Source: Candidatus Woesearchaeota archaeon
GTDB lineage: Archaea > Nanobdellota > Nanobdellia > Nanobdellales > CAZNIQ01
Assembly (NCBI GenBank): GCA_964573185.1
Contig: CAZNIQ010000025.1
Span: 1-10,098, forward strand
Direction of reading: 5' to 3'
DNA length: 10,098 nucleotides
Shown here: positions 1-8,495 of the stretch, piece after piece
How positions within the stretch are numbered: position 1 is the first letter of the stretch
How the letters are laid out: every line of letters starts with the position of its first letter
Notes under the pieces: generated by a model
What the model was told of the DNA's origin: nothing
What the model saw: the letters and a program-made list of their open reading frames with translations, nothing else
The model's database searches: none
Position numbers and translations under genes: made by a program

Positions 1-1338
1 TATTCGGTCGTAGATTATTCCATTTTCAACATATTTTTCTTTAAATTCTTCAAATGTTTCAAAGTATTCTGAAATTCTTGTCTCTAAAATGTTTTCATAT
101 ACAGCCCTTTCAATTAATCTTTGATTTACATTTAGCATTTCCGCAATTTCTTTAACAGATTTTCTTGGATATAACCCTATTGCAACCAACTTGGCTTCTT
201 TTCTTTCTTCTCTATTTACAATTTTTCTTCTTAAATATTCTGCTACGACTAAACCTTCTCTTTGTTTTAAAGAATAAGCATATCCTATTTCTGTCAAGAA
301 TTTATAAACATCCTTTTCAGATTTCAGGTATAATCTATACATTACTTTTCCATCATATTCTTTCACTTTGTATATTTCAGATTCTATTCCAAATTCTTTC
401 AATATTTCTTTTATTTCTTCTAAGAATTTAACTAAGTTTTCTTCTAATTCTTTTACTTTTACAAATGTTAAACTTATCTGTAAAGCTGTTTTACCTTTAA
501 CTATTGGCTTTGAACCGTCTGAACCAAATAAACCTGCTAAGAAATTTGCTTTAACCCATTTTGGGCTTTCCTTTAACCATTCTGGTATTCTGAATTCTGC
601 TTTTGTTTTCTCACCAACAGGAGCTCCCAATTTAATTAATAATAATGCAAAAGCTTTTGAGGTAATCTTAATAGAATATTCTTTTCCTTCAGTTTCATAT
701 TCATAACCCCAAGGAGATTTTATCTTTATTTTTCTTTTCCTTTCATAAATTCTTGAAGCTTTAATACTTAATTTTTCTAGATCTCTTCTTAATTCTTCCA
801 ATCCTTCCTTTTCACCGTAGAACCAAACAATATATCTTTCTCTCTTCTTCCCTCTCTCTTCTGTTATTATTCTAGTTATGCATCCATCTCCAATTAGATA
901 ACCTAAAATTCTAGCAAGGATTCCAATTCTTAAATCATTTGATTTCAAAGGTAACAATTTTCTTTCTTTAAGATACTTAATTATTTGTGGGTCATATCTT
1001 TCGAAATCTTTTTCAGTTAAAATTACTTTTTCTTTTGGTTTTTCAAACTCAACACCTTCAAATGGGTAAACAGCTATATACTCTCCTACTTTTAGTTCTT
1101 TAGCTAATTTCCATCCTTCTTTTGTTAAAACTGGATGATCAAAAGATAATTCTAGTTCCCTTCCAGTTTCTGTTTTTATCTTTATTATGAACTCGTCAGA
1201 GGGTCTTTCAGATATAAATAAAATTCTGCTTCTCTTTTCCTTTGTTCTTAACTCTACTTCATTTAATAAAGGTATTAAATCTTTTATTTTAATTCTAAAA
1301 CCTAAATCCGTTAGTACTTCGGTATTTCCAGGCAAGCA
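1..1338 (-). mobile_element. Intein with LAGLIDADG homing-endonuclease domain, inserted in RtcB directly after GFDIN; C-terminal splice junction is outside the window
   Basis: After extein ...GGIGFDIN the sequence continues [14 protein letters not shown] (Cys1 codon 1338..1336, intein block A-like). This is followed by [12 protein letters not shown] (block B-like, TxxH type). Two LAGLIDADG motifs follow: [15 protein letters not shown] (about 883..903) and [14 protein letters not shown] (about 511..543). ENGIIYDRI at the window edge resembles block F. The RtcB motif would normally continue GFDINCGVR. Confidence 0.85.
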
Positions 1339-1626
1339 ATTAATATCAAAGCCTATTCCGCCAGGAGTAATTATTCCTTCATTTAAATCAAAAGCAGCAA
1401 CACCTCCAATTGGAAAACCATAACCTTGGTGTCCATCGGGCATTACGATCATCCATTTTTGAATACCCGGTAATGTAGCAACATTTCTTGCTTGTTCTAA
1501 CGTTTTATCTTCTTGCATTTTCTTAAGTAGTATTTCTGAAGCATATATTCTTGCAGGAACTCTCATTGGGGGCTCTTTTGGTATTTCCCAAATAAGATCA
1601 GAAACTTTTCTCAGCTTAATGTACAT
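1..1626 (-). CDS. rtcB: RNA-splicing ligase RtcB, N-terminal part interrupted by an intein; the rest of the gene lies beyond the left window edge
   Basis: Manual minus-strand translation from ATG 1626..1624 stays open to base 1 (542 codons). It is absent from the ORF track because it runs off the edge. The N-terminus [31 protein letters not shown]...[31 protein letters not shown]...PGGIGFDIN carries the conserved RtcB motifs (PDxHxGYGxPIGG, GGIGFDIN followed by Cys). Confidence 0.9.
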
Positions 1627-3689: not shown

Positions 3690-3738
3690 TCAGGAGCTTA
3701 GAGGCTCATCAATAATCAGCTCCGCCTGAAATCATCAT
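3690..3738 (-). ncRNA. Box C/D sRNA (intergenic)
   Basis: Minus-strand layout is ATGATGA (C, 3738..3732), 12 nt TTTCAGGCGGAG, CTGA (D', 3719..3716), TTAT, TGATGA (C', 3711..3706), 12 nt GCCTCTAAGCTC, CTGA (D, 3693..3690). The flanks (AUUUUAA 5' and ACAAAAU 3') can form a short terminal stem. It is the GC-rich island of an otherwise A/T intergenic region. Confidence 0.85.
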
Positions 3739-3766
3739 TTAAAATTATTTTTATATTTAATTTTAA
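3739..3766. promoter_or_regulatory. 28-bp divergent promoter spacer between the C/D sRNA (minus) and tatD (plus)
   Basis: Plus-strand TTTAAAAT (about 3739..3746) is centred about 25 nt upstream of the tatD ATG 3767. Minus-strand TTTAAAA (complement of about 3760..3766) is centred about 25 nt upstream of the C box at 3738. The TATA-like elements are interleaved; this is inference only. Confidence 0.35.
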
Positions 3767-4522: not shown

Positions 4523-5042
4523 AATTTAATACCTCTGGATGAAAAGTGAAACCATAAATCTCTCTGTTTTTTACCTTAAAAATCGCTGGTTCATCTTTAA
4601 CATATCCTAAAATTTCAAAATTTTCGCTTAAAACAGGATACCTCACTATTAAAAAATAAGCTCTAAATTTGCCAAAAATAGAATTTACATCATAAACTCC
4701 AATAAATCCTTTTTTCTTTAGTTTACCCCCAAATGTTAATGCTATTATTTGAGATCCTGCACCTACTCCTATCACTTTCTTATTCGTATTTTTAATCCAT
4801 TTGAACTTATCTAAATAGTTTAAATATTCAAAATCTTTAATAGCAGTTCCAGATAAAATAATTACATCCTCTTTCGGTTCTTTCTCCAATTCTTTATAAT
4901 GAATTACTTTAACATTTCCTTTTTCTTTAAAAATGTCTACTAAAGGTCCTACAAACTCTTCTTCATGCAACTTATATTTACATAAAGAAATTATCAGGAT
5001 CGAGAGTCCCTCATCATTTTCAGAGTGGGATAACGTCATCAT
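4485..5042 (-). CDS. Class-I glutamine amidotransferase-like protein (GuaA subunit A-like fold) lacking the nucleophile cysteine
   Basis: ILIISL (beta-1-like), VIILSG, VIGVGAGSQIIALTFGG in place of the GxCxGxQ nucleophile elbow, and YGFTFHPEV (His/Glu of the triad). The only canonical in-frame starts are ATG 5042 or 5039, both inside the C box of the overlapping sRNA. Confidence 0.65.
   Translation of the reverse strand: MMTLSHSENDEGLSILIISLCKYKLHEEEFVGPLVDIFKEKGNVKVIHYKELEKEPKEDVIILSGTAIKDFEYLNYLDKFKWIKNTNKKVIGVGAGSQIIALTFGGKLKKKGFIGVYDVNSIFGKFRAYFLIVRYPVLSENFEILGYVKDEPAIFKVKNREIYGFTFHPEVLNSKLLLEILSQNF
4994..5042 (-). ncRNA. Box C/D sRNA coincident with codons 1-17 of the GATase-like CDS
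   Basis: Minus-strand layout is ATGATGA (C, 5042..5036), 12 nt CGTTATCCCACT, CTGA (D', 5023..5020), AAA, TGATGA (C', 5016..5011), 13 nt GGGACTCTCGATC, CTGA (D, 4997..4994). All four boxes are perfect and the segment is a GC-rich island. A TATA-like ATTTTTAAA (complement of 5067..5075) sits about 29 nt upstream of the C box. Confidence 0.8.
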
Positions 5043-5080
5043 TAAGATTTTAAATTTTGTTTAGAATTTAAAAATTAGAT
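5043..5080. promoter_or_regulatory. 38-bp divergent promoter spacer between the sRNA/GATase-like unit (minus) and tRNA-Gln (plus)
   Basis: Plus-strand TTTTAAAT (5048..5055) is centred about 29 nt upstream of tRNA position 1 (5081). Minus-strand ATTTTTAAA (5075..5067) is centred about 29 nt upstream of the C box/ATG at 5042. The symmetric spacing fits archaeal TATA boxes; unverified. Confidence 0.4.
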
Positions 5081-5116
5081 AGCCCCGTCGTCTAGCGGCC
5101 AAGGATGCGGGGTACC

Positions 5117-6169
5117 ATGGCGGCCGACCCCTTCCAACTTCTTTATTCCACAGTTAAACATTTGGAAAAGGAAATGAATGTTTCTTTAGATGAAGTAGCT
5201 GTCACCTATCCTCATTCAGAGATTTCGCGAGAATTTGTTAGAAGACTGCGTAGAAGATTCAAAATCAGAATAAAAGGAGAAGGAACTTTCCATACAACTG
5301 GAAGATTATTAGGATTGGCATTAACAGATGCAAATTTAAGATCTGCATTAAGTGGCTACTTTATAGTTGGAACGACCAGAATGGAAACATTTGAAATTTA
5401 TAAGAAACTTTTTAAAGACATAGTTCTTTTTACAGATTATCCTAGATATATAAATGGCAATCCATTATTACCTCTTTACATGTTGTCTAAAGACAAAACC
5501 TCTGTTAAAAAAGAAAGTATAAATAAGCTTAAAATGCTGCTAACGGACAATTTAGATATTTTTGAGGAAAAAGGGATCTTTGATTTTATAGCAAGCTGTG
5601 TAGATTTTGACGGAGAAGTACATGGCAGAACATTTGTTATTTATAGAAAAGAAAATAGCAGGAAGGGGCAAATATTATCTAAACTTTTCTTATTTTTTGA
5701 AGAAATTGGCATATTAAAAATCACAAATTATGGTTTAAATACATGGAAAGATAGAATATCATTCAAAGTTTCTGCAAAGTATATACGAAATATAATGTTA
5801 TTGCATCCTAATAAAAGGATTGCTTCAGATATTTCAATTCCAAGTATAGTTTTTACAAAAGAAGAACTAGAATGCCTTAGGAAATACCTAAAAGAGGTTA
5901 AATTAATTAAACAAAAGTATGCATACAAATATCTTCTATTATTTAATGATATAAAGGCGGCACAACTGTTAAAAGATAAAGGATTTAAAATAAGTATCTT
6001 TGGTAAAAATATTGCAAAATATTTTGGAGATAAAGCATTACTTCTAGCAATTTTAGATATTATCGGATTTAATATAAAGAACCTGATTCCTCCGTATAAA
6101 TATCCGAGTAGAATATACGAACTTTTGGATAAAGTTGAATATATAAAAAGCCATATAAAGGTTAAATGA
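5117..6169 (+). CDS. Intron-encoded two-motif LAGLIDADG homing endonuclease with a C-terminal extension of about 140 aa
   Basis: Motif 1 is RLLGLALTDANL (LLGLALTDA at 5306..5332). Motif 2 is FDFIASCVDFDGEV (IASCVDFDG at 5588..5614). They lie about 95 aa apart, as in single-chain LAGLIDADG enzymes. The start is set at ATG 5117, the first ATG inside the intron. The track start 5105 lies in the tRNA exon, and ATG 5174 is an alternative. Stop TGA is at 6167..6169, 10 nt before the clamp. Confidence 0.8.
   Translation: MAADPFQLLYSTVKHLEKEMNVSLDEVAVTYPHSEISREFVRRLRRRFKIRIKGEGTFHTTGRLLGLALTDANLRSALSGYFIVGTTRMETFEIYKKLFKDIVLFTDYPRYINGNPLLPLYMLSKDKTSVKKESINKLKMLLTDNLDIFEEKGIFDFIASCVDFDGEVHGRTFVIYRKENSRKGQILSKLFLFFEEIGILKITNYGLNTWKDRISFKVSAKYIRNIMLLHPNKRIASDISIPSIVFTKEELECLRKYLKEVKLIKQKYAYKYLLLFNDIKAAQLLKDKGFKISIFGKNIAKYFGDKALLLAILDIIGFNIKNLIPPYKYPSRIYELLDKVEYIKSHIKVK
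5119..5133 (+). repeat. 5' arm of a 15-bp perfect inverted repeat (GC clamp) closing the intron
   Basis: GGCGGCCGACCCCTT is the exact reverse complement of 6179..6193. Confidence 0.95.
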
Positions 6170-6178
6170 AAAAATGTA

Positions 6179-6193
6179 AAGGGGTCGGCCGCC
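6179..6193 (+). repeat. 3' arm of a 15-bp perfect inverted repeat (GC clamp) closing the intron
   Basis: AAGGGGTCGGCCGCC is the exact reverse complement of 5119..5133. Confidence 0.95.
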
Positions 6194-6239
6194 GGGCCCG
6201 AGTTTGGTCCCCGTGACCGGGGTTCGAATCCCCGCGGGG

Positions 6240-8495
6240 CTAGTAAACTTTAACTTCTATTTCAGTTCCCTTTCTATATAAATAATAGCTTTTTGCAGCA
6301 GCTTCTTTAAAAATTTCATCATGTGTACAAATAATTAATTGGAAATTCTCCAAAGATTTTAAAGTTTCTGCAAGTTTCCTTCTTATTCTTTCATCTAAAG
6401 ATTCTGTAGGCTCATCTAATAATAGAAAGCCTATATTTTTTGATAACAGATTTATTAATGCAAATCTAAAAGCCAAGTCTAAAGCTACTATTTGGCCTCC
6501 AGATAGGGACGCTTCTTCCAAAGGTAAAACAACATCCCTCTCACCAATTTTCTTCTTTACATATATTTTATAAACAAAATCTTTCCTTCCCCTTTCAACT
6601 CTTATCTCAACACTTTCAATATCATCATATATGTAAATCCTCTTAAACCAATAATTTAGATAAATAGTTAATCTTTTGGCAACTTCATCTCTTACCCTTA
6701 TCTTTATTTTTTGGAATACAGTAGCAAGCTTGCTTATTATATTTACAAATTTTTCTAACTCTTCGATGTACTTCTTAAGTTTTTCAACATATTCTTTCTT
6801 CTCTTTTAAGTATTTCAAGAATTTTATATCTATTTTAGGTAAGCTTTCCAGTTCATCTTCAACTTCCTTTATTTTCCTTTCTATTTCTTCTAATTCTATA
6901 CCATACCTCTTAACGATTTCTTTTAATTCCTCTAACTCTTTTATTTTTTCTTTCATCTTAAAGATCCTATATCTTTGAATTTCCAAATCTCTTAACTCTT
7001 TTTCTAATCTACTTTTAGTTTCTTCCAATTCTTTTACACTTCTCTCAATCTCTTTCTTCTTCAAATAACTTAAAGCAGAATATACTTTTTCATAGATCAA
7101 AATTTCGTTTAATTCTTTCTCAAAGTTTTCCTTTATTCTTTCTAATTCTTCTATTTTATCAGTACCAAATTCCTCTAAGGCAAAGTTTAAATAATATTTT
7201 CTTTTATTATAAATCTCTCTCTTCTCTTCTAACTCTTTTTCTAAATTTAAGATTTCTCTTTTTATTTGTAAATCTCTTTTTTTCAACTCTTCTAACTCTT
7301 TTACCTTTTCTTCTAATAATTTTTTTGGATTTTCAATTCTTGAACCACACACAGGACATTTCGGTTCCTTTACTTTTTCTAGTATCTCTATGAGTTTTTG
7401 AATATCCTTTATCTTAACATTTAATTCCCTCAACTCTTCTTTTTTCTTTTCTAATTTTTCTTCTAATTCTTTTATATCCTCTTCTTTTATATTCGGTAGC
7501 TCTTTCAAATTCTTTATAATTCTCTCTATTTGTTTTATTTTATTTAAAATTAAGGACTTTCTTGAGGTATCTACCTTTATTTTCTTTACCGTTTCCTCCA
7601 GCTCTTCTATTTTCTTATCTAAGAACTCTTTAAAATCATCCGTTAAAATATCATACTTTGCACTTTCTTCTTTCAATTCTAATATTATATTTTCAACTTC
7701 TCTTAACTCTTCTTTAATTTTACTATATTTTTCATTAATTTCTTTTTCTTTTTTCAACAACTCCTCATCGATTTCCCTCTTCAAATATTTATATCTTATA
7801 TTTATCCTTTCTAACTCTTTTAATTGTCTCTCCAATTCTTCCCTTCTTTTAGCTAATTCTTCTAGTTTTCCAATATCCTCTCCAAAGTACTTTTGTATAG
7901 AAGCGCTTTCTCTTGTATATTCGGATTTTGCTCTTAGTAATTCTTTTCTTAAATCCTCTAGAGCTTTGCTTAAGGTATCTGCAATCTCTGTAAATTTTTT
8001 CAAATCTAATAATTCTTCTAATTCTTCTGAAAAAGTTTTCTTTCCAGAGCCTAAAACCAAAGATCCTAAAGTTCTTTGTCTAATGAATATAACATTTACA
8101 GCCTTATCTAAATCTTTTACTTTGAGTAAATTTTCTAATACATATCTAGTTATAGTTTCATTTCCAGATGCAACCACTTTTCCATTTTTTCTTATAATAC
8201 CATTTCCAGAAGGAACTTCTCTTATAATTTCATATATATTTTCATTATCCTGTAAAACAACTGTAACTTTTCCTAGAGAACTTCCTCTTCTGACTAAATT
8301 TTCTTTTCTTCCACCTTTTTCGTAAGAAGTTAAAGCTTGAGAGCCAAATAAAGCATAAATTATACCTAATAATATAGATGTTTTACCGGTTCCGTTTTCG
8401 CCTAAAATCAAAGTAACTTTATCATCAAAATCTATTGCTAAGTTTTTATGAATTCTAAAATTTTCTAATACTACTTTTTTTAATTTAACTACCAT
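6240..8495 (-). CDS. rad50: DNA double-strand break repair ATPase Rad50
   Basis: Walker A GENGTGKTS is near the N-terminus. A long E/K-rich coiled coil carries a central zinc hook, KEPKCPVCGS (CPVC at 7358..7347, aa 380-383). The ABC signature SLSGGQ, Walker B LLLDEPT and H-loop ICTHD are at the C-terminus. The start overlaps the mre11 stop by 7 nt. Confidence 0.93.
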   Translation of the reverse strand: MVVKLKKVVLENFRIHKNLAIDFDDKVTLILGENGTGKTSILLGIIYALFGSQALTSYEKGGRKENLVRRGSSLGKVTVVLQDNENIYEIIREVPSGNGIIRKNGKVVASGNETITRYVLENLLKVKDLDKAVNVIFIRQRTLGSLVLGSGKKTFSEELEELLDLKKFTEIADTLSKALEDLRKELLRAKSEYTRESASIQKYFGEDIGKLEELAKRREELERQLKELERINIRYKYLKREIDEELLKKEKEINEKYSKIKEELREVENIILELKEESAKYDILTDDFKEFLDKKIEELEETVKKIKVDTSRKSLILNKIKQIERIIKNLKELPNIKEEDIKELEEKLEKKKEELRELNVKIKDIQKLIEILEKVKEPKCPVCGSRIENPKKLLEEKVKELEELKKRDLQIKREILNLEKELEEKREIYNKRKYYLNFALEEFGTDKIEELERIKENFEKELNEILIYEKVYSALSYLKKKEIERSVKELEETKSRLEKELRDLEIQRYRIFKMKEKIKELEELKEIVKRYGIELEEIERKIKEVEDELESLPKIDIKFLKYLKEKKEYVEKLKKYIEELEKFVNIISKLATVFQKIKIRVRDEVAKRLTIYLNYWFKRIYIYDDIESVEIRVERGRKDFVYKIYVKKKIGERDVVLPLEEASLSGGQIVALDLAFRFALINLLSKNIGFLLLDEPTESLDERIRRKLAETLKSLENFQLIICTHDEIFKEAAAKSYYLYRKGTEIEVKVY

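Follow-up and report, generated by a model that had tools for sequence, protein, structure and literature searches.

The stretch of DNA analysed here (hereafter the window) comprises 10,098 nt, positions 1 to 10,098 of contig CAZNIQ010000025.1 in assembly GCA_964573185.1 of a Candidatus Woesearchaeota archaeon. It contains a tRNA-Gln(UUG) gene that is interrupted at tRNA position 32/33 by a 1,089-nt intron carrying an open reading frame (ORF), and the two ends of this intron are complementary to each other over a GC-rich stretch (hereafter the clamp). The clamp is very probably the core of the outer helix, h', of a relaxed bulge-helix-bulge (BHB) motif belonging to a protein-coding intron in a nanoarchaeal tRNA gene.

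When long introns are allowed, ARAGORN predicts the tRNA-Gln(UUG) gene at 5080-6243 with its 1,089-nt intron; under default settings it returns no tRNA in the window. The 5' exon (5081..5113, plus strand) has 33 nt corresponding to tRNA positions 1-32, as read by ARAGORN from both the window and the spliced sequence, and 26 of these nucleotides are identical to those of more than 100 crenarchaeal tRNA-Gln genes. The 3' exon (6203..6242, plus strand), also delimited by ARAGORN, has 40 nt corresponding to positions 33-73, with the anticodon TTG at 6204-6206. Splicing in silico, with 5113 joined to 6203, gives a 73-nt sequence (intron-less DNA GGATGCGGGGTTTTGGTCCCCGTGA) that adopts the normal tRNA-Gln(UUG) fold, is recognised by ARAGORN and is near-identical to more than 100 tRNA-Gln genes. 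The intervening BHB-type intron (5114..6202, plus strand; 30% GC), defined by ARAGORN and by the minimum free energy (MFE) fold of the full-length precursor, occupies a non-canonical intron site upstream of the anticodon. It is filled by the ORF (350 codons plus stop, 5117..6169, plus strand; 331 aa from the alternative start ATG 5174), which overlaps the 5' arm of the clamp and stops 9 nt before its 3' arm. A self-splicing intron was ruled out with Rfam, where the locus showed neither a group I nor a group II signature and no tRNA match at E<=1.

In the MFE fold, the tetranucleotide CGGG at 5108..5111 pairs with CCCG at 6197..6200 (both plus strand) to form the 4-bp central helix H of the BHB. 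This helix lies between two 3-nt bulges on opposite strands: the 5' bulge G5112-U5113/A5114 (5112..5114, plus strand), unpaired in the fold and containing the predicted 5' splice site 5113/5114, and the 3' bulge A6201-G6202/U6203 (6201..6203, plus strand), in which ARAGORN and the fold both set the predicted 3' splice site 6202/6203. Since U6203 engages in a weak G-U pair, the 3' bulge counts 2-3 nt. Cutting after the second nucleotide of the bulge at both sites, that is at symmetric positions, yields the correct mature tRNA. The outer helices are unequal, with a strong h' of 18 bp on the intron side and a poor helix h on the exon side, where a G-U pair and an alternative CCAAG/UUUGG pairing occur. 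Because the exon-side helix is weak, the motif takes the relaxed HBh' form, in which the fold assigns the clamp to the intron-side outer helix h'.

The initial annotation had reported a perfect complementarity of 15 nt between the intron ends, and this is exact: 5119-5133 (GGCGGCCGACCCCTT) is the reverse complement of 6179-6193 (AAGGGGTCGGCCGCC). In the MFE fold of the full pre-tRNA, the clamp and the BHB formed together, and the clamp extended to an 18-bp helix with one bulged A. The 5' arm (5115..5133, plus strand) then consists of CC, bulged A5117, U5118 and the 15-nt perfect stretch, and the 3' arm covers 6179..6196 (plus strand); the additional pairs are C5115-G6196, C5116-G6195 and U5118-G6194, followed by 15 perfect pairs from G5119-C6193. 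The helix directly adjoins the BHB in this fold, and the proposal that it brings the splice sites together across an ORF of about 1 kb is supported.

The complementarity is far above chance. A 15-nt exact inverted repeat arose in only one of 500 mononucleotide shuffles of the whole 1,163-nt pre-tRNA, and shuffling confined to the two GC-rich flanks never gave an inverted repeat longer than 11 nt in 5,000 trials. The two arms stand out as GC islands placed symmetrically at both ends of an AT-rich stretch, GC content elsewhere in the window being 21-38%. Partition function calculations gave the clamp a mean pair probability of ca. 0.93 from 37 to 95 C, and at 85 C it is practically the sole stable long-range structure of the precursor. 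The probability of the central helix H is 0.41-0.65 with the clamp and drops to 0.00-0.01 once the 3' arm is shuffled; in silico, the BHB central helix forms only if the clamp exists. Fold energies at high temperature come from extrapolated parameters, so that these values are supportive but short of proof.

Genes for tRNAs are well known as insertion sites of mobile elements, and the complementarity might be imagined to be incidental, reflecting a chance GC repeat, a terminator hairpin or the duplicated termini of an inserted element, unconnected with splicing. Such an origin is extremely improbable and is effectively refuted by the spliced tRNA, the fold, the helices of homologous introns, the shuffles and the dependence of the BHB on the clamp. 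Besides the shuffle tests, which argue against chance, both arms directly adjoin a canonical 4-bp helix flanked by 3-nt bulges, at which cutting leaves a perfect tRNA; the repeats are inverted and not direct; arms 1 kb apart cannot make a terminator hairpin; and homologous introns, described below, retain the helix with a different sequence.

Since 1,089 nt of sequence with 30% GC separate the two splice sites and the organism is a thermophile, the BHB can form only with a stable long-range helix. The clamp would nucleate beside the splice sites and allow the 4-bp helix and the two 3-nt bulges to form for recognition by the splicing endonuclease; after cuts at 5113/5114 and 6202/6203, exon joining would fall to RtcB, which would probably also circularise the intron, and the excised molecule would keep the clamp as its closing stem. 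The same device, made of a tRNA part, a BHB and a GC helix of 12-21 bp, lets separately transcribed halves pair in Nanoarchaeum equitans and in some Desulfurococcales. A DNA break or rearrangement anywhere in the AT-rich intron would then generate a split tRNA-Gln of the N. equitans type with both clamp arms already in place. Actual splicing, circularisation and an origin of the N. equitans split in an intron of this kind are inferences; the reverse direction, in which the intron-bearing gene is a split gene that has been re-joined, is possible.

Homologous introns were found through the ORF. An exhaustive search of 1.8 billion representative proteins returned one true relative, P0002 (E 5e-10), with an alignment that spans the whole core. 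The corresponding gene lies on contig L002 (37% GC) of a Desulfurococcaceae metagenome-assembled genome (MAG), inside a tRNA-Gln(UUG) gene and also at position 32/33. Three further loci came from a metagenome scan run with the protein alignment, and a genome scan also caught copies of L124 and of L086/L126. L124 is a near-identical copy of the L002 intron, and both have a clamp that forms a perfect 21-bp helix of unrelated sequence (GACGGGGGUCCUCCGUCUACC; GACGGGGGTCCTCCGTCTACC) directly abutting the bulge. L125 is a 76%-identical variant with two substitutions in the 5' arm, its 3' arm being lost at the contig end. In L086/L126, the ORF is broken into three frames, the clamp has 14 bp and the gene has a second, short intron at 37/38. 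All members of the ORF family that were found thus lie inside tRNA-Gln 32/33 introns, the only three relatives of the window ORF all belonging to Desulfurococcaceae, and the homologous introns keep a helix of 14-21 bp at the same place with differing sequence. The initial annotation had proposed comparing related tRNA-Gln loci for homologous clamp sequences; the helices of these introns are unrelated in sequence. A conserved helix of variable sequence, a single insertion site and one decaying ORF together make the pattern expected of a site-specific mobile intron. Viral contigs yielded no tRNA-Gln with a 32/33 intron.

At L002, ARAGORN mislabels the tRNA-Gln(UUG) gene (4904-6701) as a tRNA-Gly(CCC) with a 1,710-nt intron because it sets the intron one helix turn off. 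Automatic annotation of such intron-bearing tRNA genes is unreliable, and as standard tRNA finders miss them, similar genes in MAGs of DPANN and crenarchaea have probably been recorded as missing tRNAs.

Several points weigh against the assignment of the clamp to the splicing motif of a tRNA intron. Homologous introns that can be considered independent number only three to four, and one of them (L125) is without a 3' arm; covariation consists of a few replacements of the whole helix and not of many compensatory pairs; and in L086 an irregular internal loop keeps the clamp apart from the central helix. The poor exon-side helix in the predicted fold means that an endonuclease of broad specificity, (alpha-beta)2 or epsilon2, is required, and a gene for EndA or for an (alpha-beta)2 or epsilon2 endonuclease is absent from the 17-kb contig. 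Finally, splicing, the exact cleavage sites and circularisation are predictions drawn from the fold.

The product of the intron ORF had initially been labelled an endonuclease, which is plausible from its motifs, but profile, hhalign and structure searches gave no significant match. No matches were obtained in Pfam, NCBIfam or PHROGs, nor to PDB sequences by sequence and profile searches, and a word-index search and a profile search of 5.8 billion proteins found only the ORF itself, annotated from ATG 5174 (P0001). Inspection of the sequence nevertheless revealed two LAGLIDADG-like motifs. The first, LLGLALTDA, contains D71 within the conserved G-L-x-x-T-D-A, and the second, IASCVDFDG, contains D165 within the conserved F-x-x-S-x-x-x-x-D-G-x-x-H-G; D71 and D165-G166 are invariant in an alignment of three sequences. 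Their acidic residues are 94 positions apart, compared with 96 in I-DmoI (sequence verified against PDB), so that, by motif inspection only, the spacing agrees with the ca. 90-100 residues of monomeric two-motif LAGLIDADG proteins. The ORF matches neither a LAGLIDADG profile nor a solved member of the family, its hhalign comparison with I-DmoI being non-significant (E=0.57), yet this alignment pairs motif 2 of the ORF with the I-DmoI motif. Models obtained with AF2 were poor (pLDDT 40 and 45); in the second, residues 107-185 (ca. residues 151-229 of the ORF) follow the order alpha-beta-beta-alpha-beta-beta-alpha, and the top Foldseek matches of this poor model include I-Tsp061I and many I-DmoI chains, with E values of 0.02-0.2 and a TM of ca. 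0.25. Taken together, the motifs suggest that the ORF probably encodes a divergent two-motif LAGLIDADG endonuclease. Whatever its activity, the family encodes a real protein under purifying selection, with a dN/dS of 0.18 between two Desulfurococcaceae copies in a gapped alignment.

The initial annotation had placed the start codon of this protein 3 nt from the 5' end of the intron, at the edge of the helix, and had considered it buried there. The sequence and the fold bear out the position, as ATG 5117-5119 lies 3 nt past the predicted splice site 5113/5114 and its G is the first base of the perfect clamp stretch. As a designed feature, burial of the start codon is poorly supported in view of the homologues and of the accessible ATG 5174. 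In L002/L124 and L125, a TATA-like box (TTTTTAAAT/TCTTTAAAT) precedes the ATG, whose distance beyond the clamp is 60-70 nt; in the window, gene callers choose ATG 5174 (P0001, 331 aa), a weak TATA-like CTTTATT (ca. 5142-5148) occurs ca. 27 nt upstream of that codon, and BLASTP homology begins only at residue 56. At 85 C, ATG 5174 is predicted to be ca. 84% unpaired, while the 18 nt around ATG 5117 are ca. 80% paired in models of both the linear and the circular intron.

These data bear on whether the clamp has been selected mainly as a translational throttle that hides ATG 5117, so that translation would be confined to the intron after its excision, in near-leaderless or circular form. Archaea commonly translate leaderless messages, the reading frame is already open at 5105, and MAFFT sets residues 4-19 opposite residues ca. 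72-95 of P0002, all of which, together with the placement of ATG 5117 at the splice site and at the opening of the clamp, would fit such a throttle. It is unlikely all the same, because an ATG at the clamp is not conserved in the homologous introns, gene callers and BLASTP homology both point to a later start, the region of ATG 5117 is predicted to be largely paired in the linear or circular intron, and equally long clamps occur in ORF-less long introns and in split halves. Most simply, ATG 5174 would be the start in actual use, and a deletion would have placed the clamp next to the reading frame.

The TATA-like strings raise another possibility, namely that the locus is already a split tRNA with neighbouring halves, giving three separate transcripts on which the clamp would act in trans. 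Strong TATA-like sequences, TATATAAAAA (6140-6149) and CATATAAAGG (6151-6160), lie 20-35 nt upstream of the 3' arm, in addition to the weak one upstream of ATG 5174, and a precedent exists at L067 (Acidilobaceae MAG JALWOJ010000101.1), where the two halves of a tRNA-Gln(CUG) gene are 1.9 kb apart on one strand, with a 13-bp GC clamp and two opposite-strand genes between them. However, TATA-like strings are expected by chance throughout the ORF at 27% GC, no oligo-T terminator directly follows the 5' arm, and, as in the ORF-carrying rRNA introns of archaea, a same-strand ORF fills the space between the arms almost exactly. Nothing here requires separate transcription; neighbouring halves are improbable, slightly more so than the throttle, and a single intron-containing precursor is the preferred reading.

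The likeness of this intron-containing gene to split tRNA genes is nonetheless close. In N. equitans, each tRNA half joins a tRNA part to GC-rich sequence that is complementary to its partner half alone, and together they form a relaxed BHB; split halves of Staphylothermus pair in trans over a perfect 13 nt. The initial annotation was right in recognising this architecture, as a GC-rich complementary stretch adjoining a relaxed BHB agrees with the literature description, and the 12-15-nt GC-rich perfect complements and relaxed BHB of the split tRNAs of N. equitans and Desulfurococcales (Randau et al. 2005) have their counterparts here. It had also stated, correctly, that the tRNA-Gln of N. equitans is split, but had placed the break at 37/38, whereas Chan et al. 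2011 (Table 1; PMC3218864) give 32/33 as the junction of this tRNA-Gln(UUG) and 33 and 40 nt as the lengths of its mature halves. The junction and the exon lengths in the window (32/33; 33 + 40 nt) are identical to these values, so that the two genes agree in phylum, tRNA, anticodon and junction. In N. equitans Kin4-M, the 5' half gene lies near 419223 on the minus strand and the 3' half gene near 356559 on the plus strand (Chan et al. 2011). What sets the window apart is that its two parts are not at separate loci: they lie on one strand 1,089 nt apart, the gap is filled by an ORF and a single precursor is possible. By analogy, the locus looks like a still-joined stage of a split tRNA. The suggestion that it is a cis-linked intermediate is therefore better founded than when it was made, by virtue of the 32/33 junction, the exon lengths and the nanoarchaeal host, but descent itself is only inferred.

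Since 2005, it has been debated whether split tRNA genes are ancient two-piece relics or arose recently, when genes with introns were broken. Within one phylum, tRNA-Gln now occurs in three states, contiguous in Nst1 and N. acidilobi, which have no split tRNAs, closed by a clamp around a 1.1-kb intron in the window, and split at 32/33 in N. equitans, and this makes the origin of split tRNAs directly testable. We consider it possible, with the chances clearly below even, that a mobile, endonuclease-carrying intron targeting position 32/33 of tRNA-Gln(UUG) moved between Nanoarchaeota and their Desulfurococcaceae hosts and that breakage of such an intron through genome rearrangement gave rise to the N. 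equitans split, the leaders of which would be former clamp arms. If this is true, the locus would show for the first time a split tRNA arising through a cis intermediate and would provide direct evidence for the 'split-late' side of the debate.

Other known elements that resemble this intron are those of crenarchaeal 16S/23S rRNA genes (I-DmoI, I-PorI, I-Tsp061I). They share with it BHB boundaries, a size of ca. 0.6-1 kb filled by one ORF, two LAGLIDADG-like motifs ca. 95 residues apart, stably paired ends, a patchy distribution and the occurrence of degenerate copies; they differ in that the host gene here is a tRNA and that the ORF here matches no LAGLIDADG profile. The open-access papers and reviews searched credit homing endonucleases to rRNA introns only and make no mention of a protein-coding BHB intron in a tRNA gene, which may have been described elsewhere. 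The present locus adds a tRNA gene to the rRNA genes that carry protein-coding BHB introns, and its intron is ca. 8 times as long as the longest tRNA intron, 129 nt, listed for 90 archaeal genomes. A long closing helix beside a BHB is a known device; the setting is new and combines a tRNA-borne coding intron, a nanoarchaeal host, an insertion site identical in position to the N. equitans split, and relatives within the lineage of the hosts.

The nanoarchaeal assignment comes from the Mre11 gene of the contig, for which the best named matches are Nanoarchaeota, Nanopusillaceae, Candidatus Nanopusillus and Nanoarchaeota NZ13-N, at 42-48% identity, one further relative being 82% identical. The contigs of these relatives have 23-35% GC, compared with 27-29% in the window, and no synteny was detected between the window contig and Desulfurococcales tRNA-Gln loci. 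By these matches, the host is a nanoarchaeote and not a crenarchaeote. Nanoarchaeotes live attached to Desulfurococcales/Sulfolobales hosts. In five relatives identified by Mre11-Rad50 synteny, the tRNA is not beside Rad50, and no tRNA occurs within +/-10 kb.

The 26-nt core common to the 5' exon and to crenarchaeal tRNA-Gln genes matched at least 119 loci when searched against 185,579 species genomes. Among the matches listed, all belong to Desulfurococcales/Sulfolobales-type Thermoproteota and comprise intron-less genes, genes with short introns at 37/38 and genes with short introns at 32/33. The latter (L054, L102, L108; ca. 17-29 nt) have the same insertion site and the same CCCG-A-N/U end as the window intron, a feature kept in all tRNA-Gln 32/33 introns, long and short, among these matches; unlike the window intron, they carry no ORF and have a short hairpin in place of the 15-21-bp clamp. 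They may represent the ancestor that received the ORF or deletion remnants of the ORF intron. The short introns have only short hairpins and no long clamp, and unrelated long introns and gaps at 37/38 are closed by GC helices of 13-16 bp (L010, L022, L038, L123 and L067). In these sequences, clamp length rises with the distance that is bridged, the same device being found in long introns and in candidate split genes. The gap in L067 holds two intact housekeeping genes, one resembling a PfkB-type sugar kinase and the other a class I aldolase, and this locus is best read as a split gene with neighbouring halves rather than as an intron.

Many tRNA-Gln 5' parts are followed by a conserved GC-rich stretch (e.g. 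ACCTCGGCCGCCGCCCCC), with no 3' part within 3-7 kb. They end at position 37 and continue with, for example, ACCTCGGCC[G/A]CCGCCCCC; such 5' parts were seen at L005, L041, L046, L065, L075, L087 and L092, as well as at L021, L062, L098, L069, L037, L043 and L077, and one of them, L057, belongs to a complete genome, that of Ignicoccus pacificus (CP006868.1). They constitute candidate split tRNA-Gln genes of Desulfurococcales/Sulfolobales, for which no report was found in the open-access literature. The MAG CALJEN01 has both a UUG and a CUG 5' part (L041, L065) with the same leader, and the two may share one 3' half, as occurs for the tRNA-Glu of N. equitans. The clamp of the window (5115-5133) also has short GC-rich strings in common with 37/38 clamps, namely CCGACCCC(C)TT with L067 and a CGGCCGCC-like string with L010 and the candidate split leaders; these are too short and too GC-biased to separate homology from composition.

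Several further observations concern the tRNA-Gln gene and its surroundings. A TATA-like box read from the sequence, GATTTTAAATTTTG (5046..5059, plus strand), is centred ca. 28 nt upstream of the tRNA +1 and is the putative promoter of the whole pre-tRNA. The other tRNA gene of the contig, a tRNA-Ser, has its box at L001 ca. 15620-15633, with the same spacing of ca. 28 nt. This spacing in two genes hints at nearly leaderless precursors, as in N. equitans, which is devoid of RNase P. At the other end of the tRNA-Gln gene, its discriminator base and final acceptor nucleotides are overlapped by the stop codon (6240-6242) of Rad50, a gene on the minus strand (6240-8495). In an independently made assembly of this strain (L133, Logan SRR7968109), the contig ends at 6205, two nucleotides into the 3' exon and right after the wobble base; the break is likely due to a repeat in common with a tRNA-Gln(CUG) paralogue whose 3' part is identical and, less likely, to coexisting alleles with and without the intron.

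The RtcB gene is found on the same contig as the intron-bearing tRNA-Gln (window 1-1626, minus strand, upstream part extending into L001 3574-6453) and is itself interrupted by an intein with a LAGLIDADG_3 domain. Two different mobile elements, the RtcB intein and the tRNA-Gln intron, are thus present in the tRNA-splicing pathway less than 5 kb apart. Finally, sub-threshold matches to C/D box small RNAs (snoPyro_CD, sR5 and others; best E 0.005) were detected at 3698-3742, 2276-2330 and 4991-5045, all on the minus strand. They show clear C, D, C' and D' boxes, the first of them is intergenic, and a further ATGATGA...CTGA unit occurs in L001 directly upstream of the tRNA-Ser promoter.

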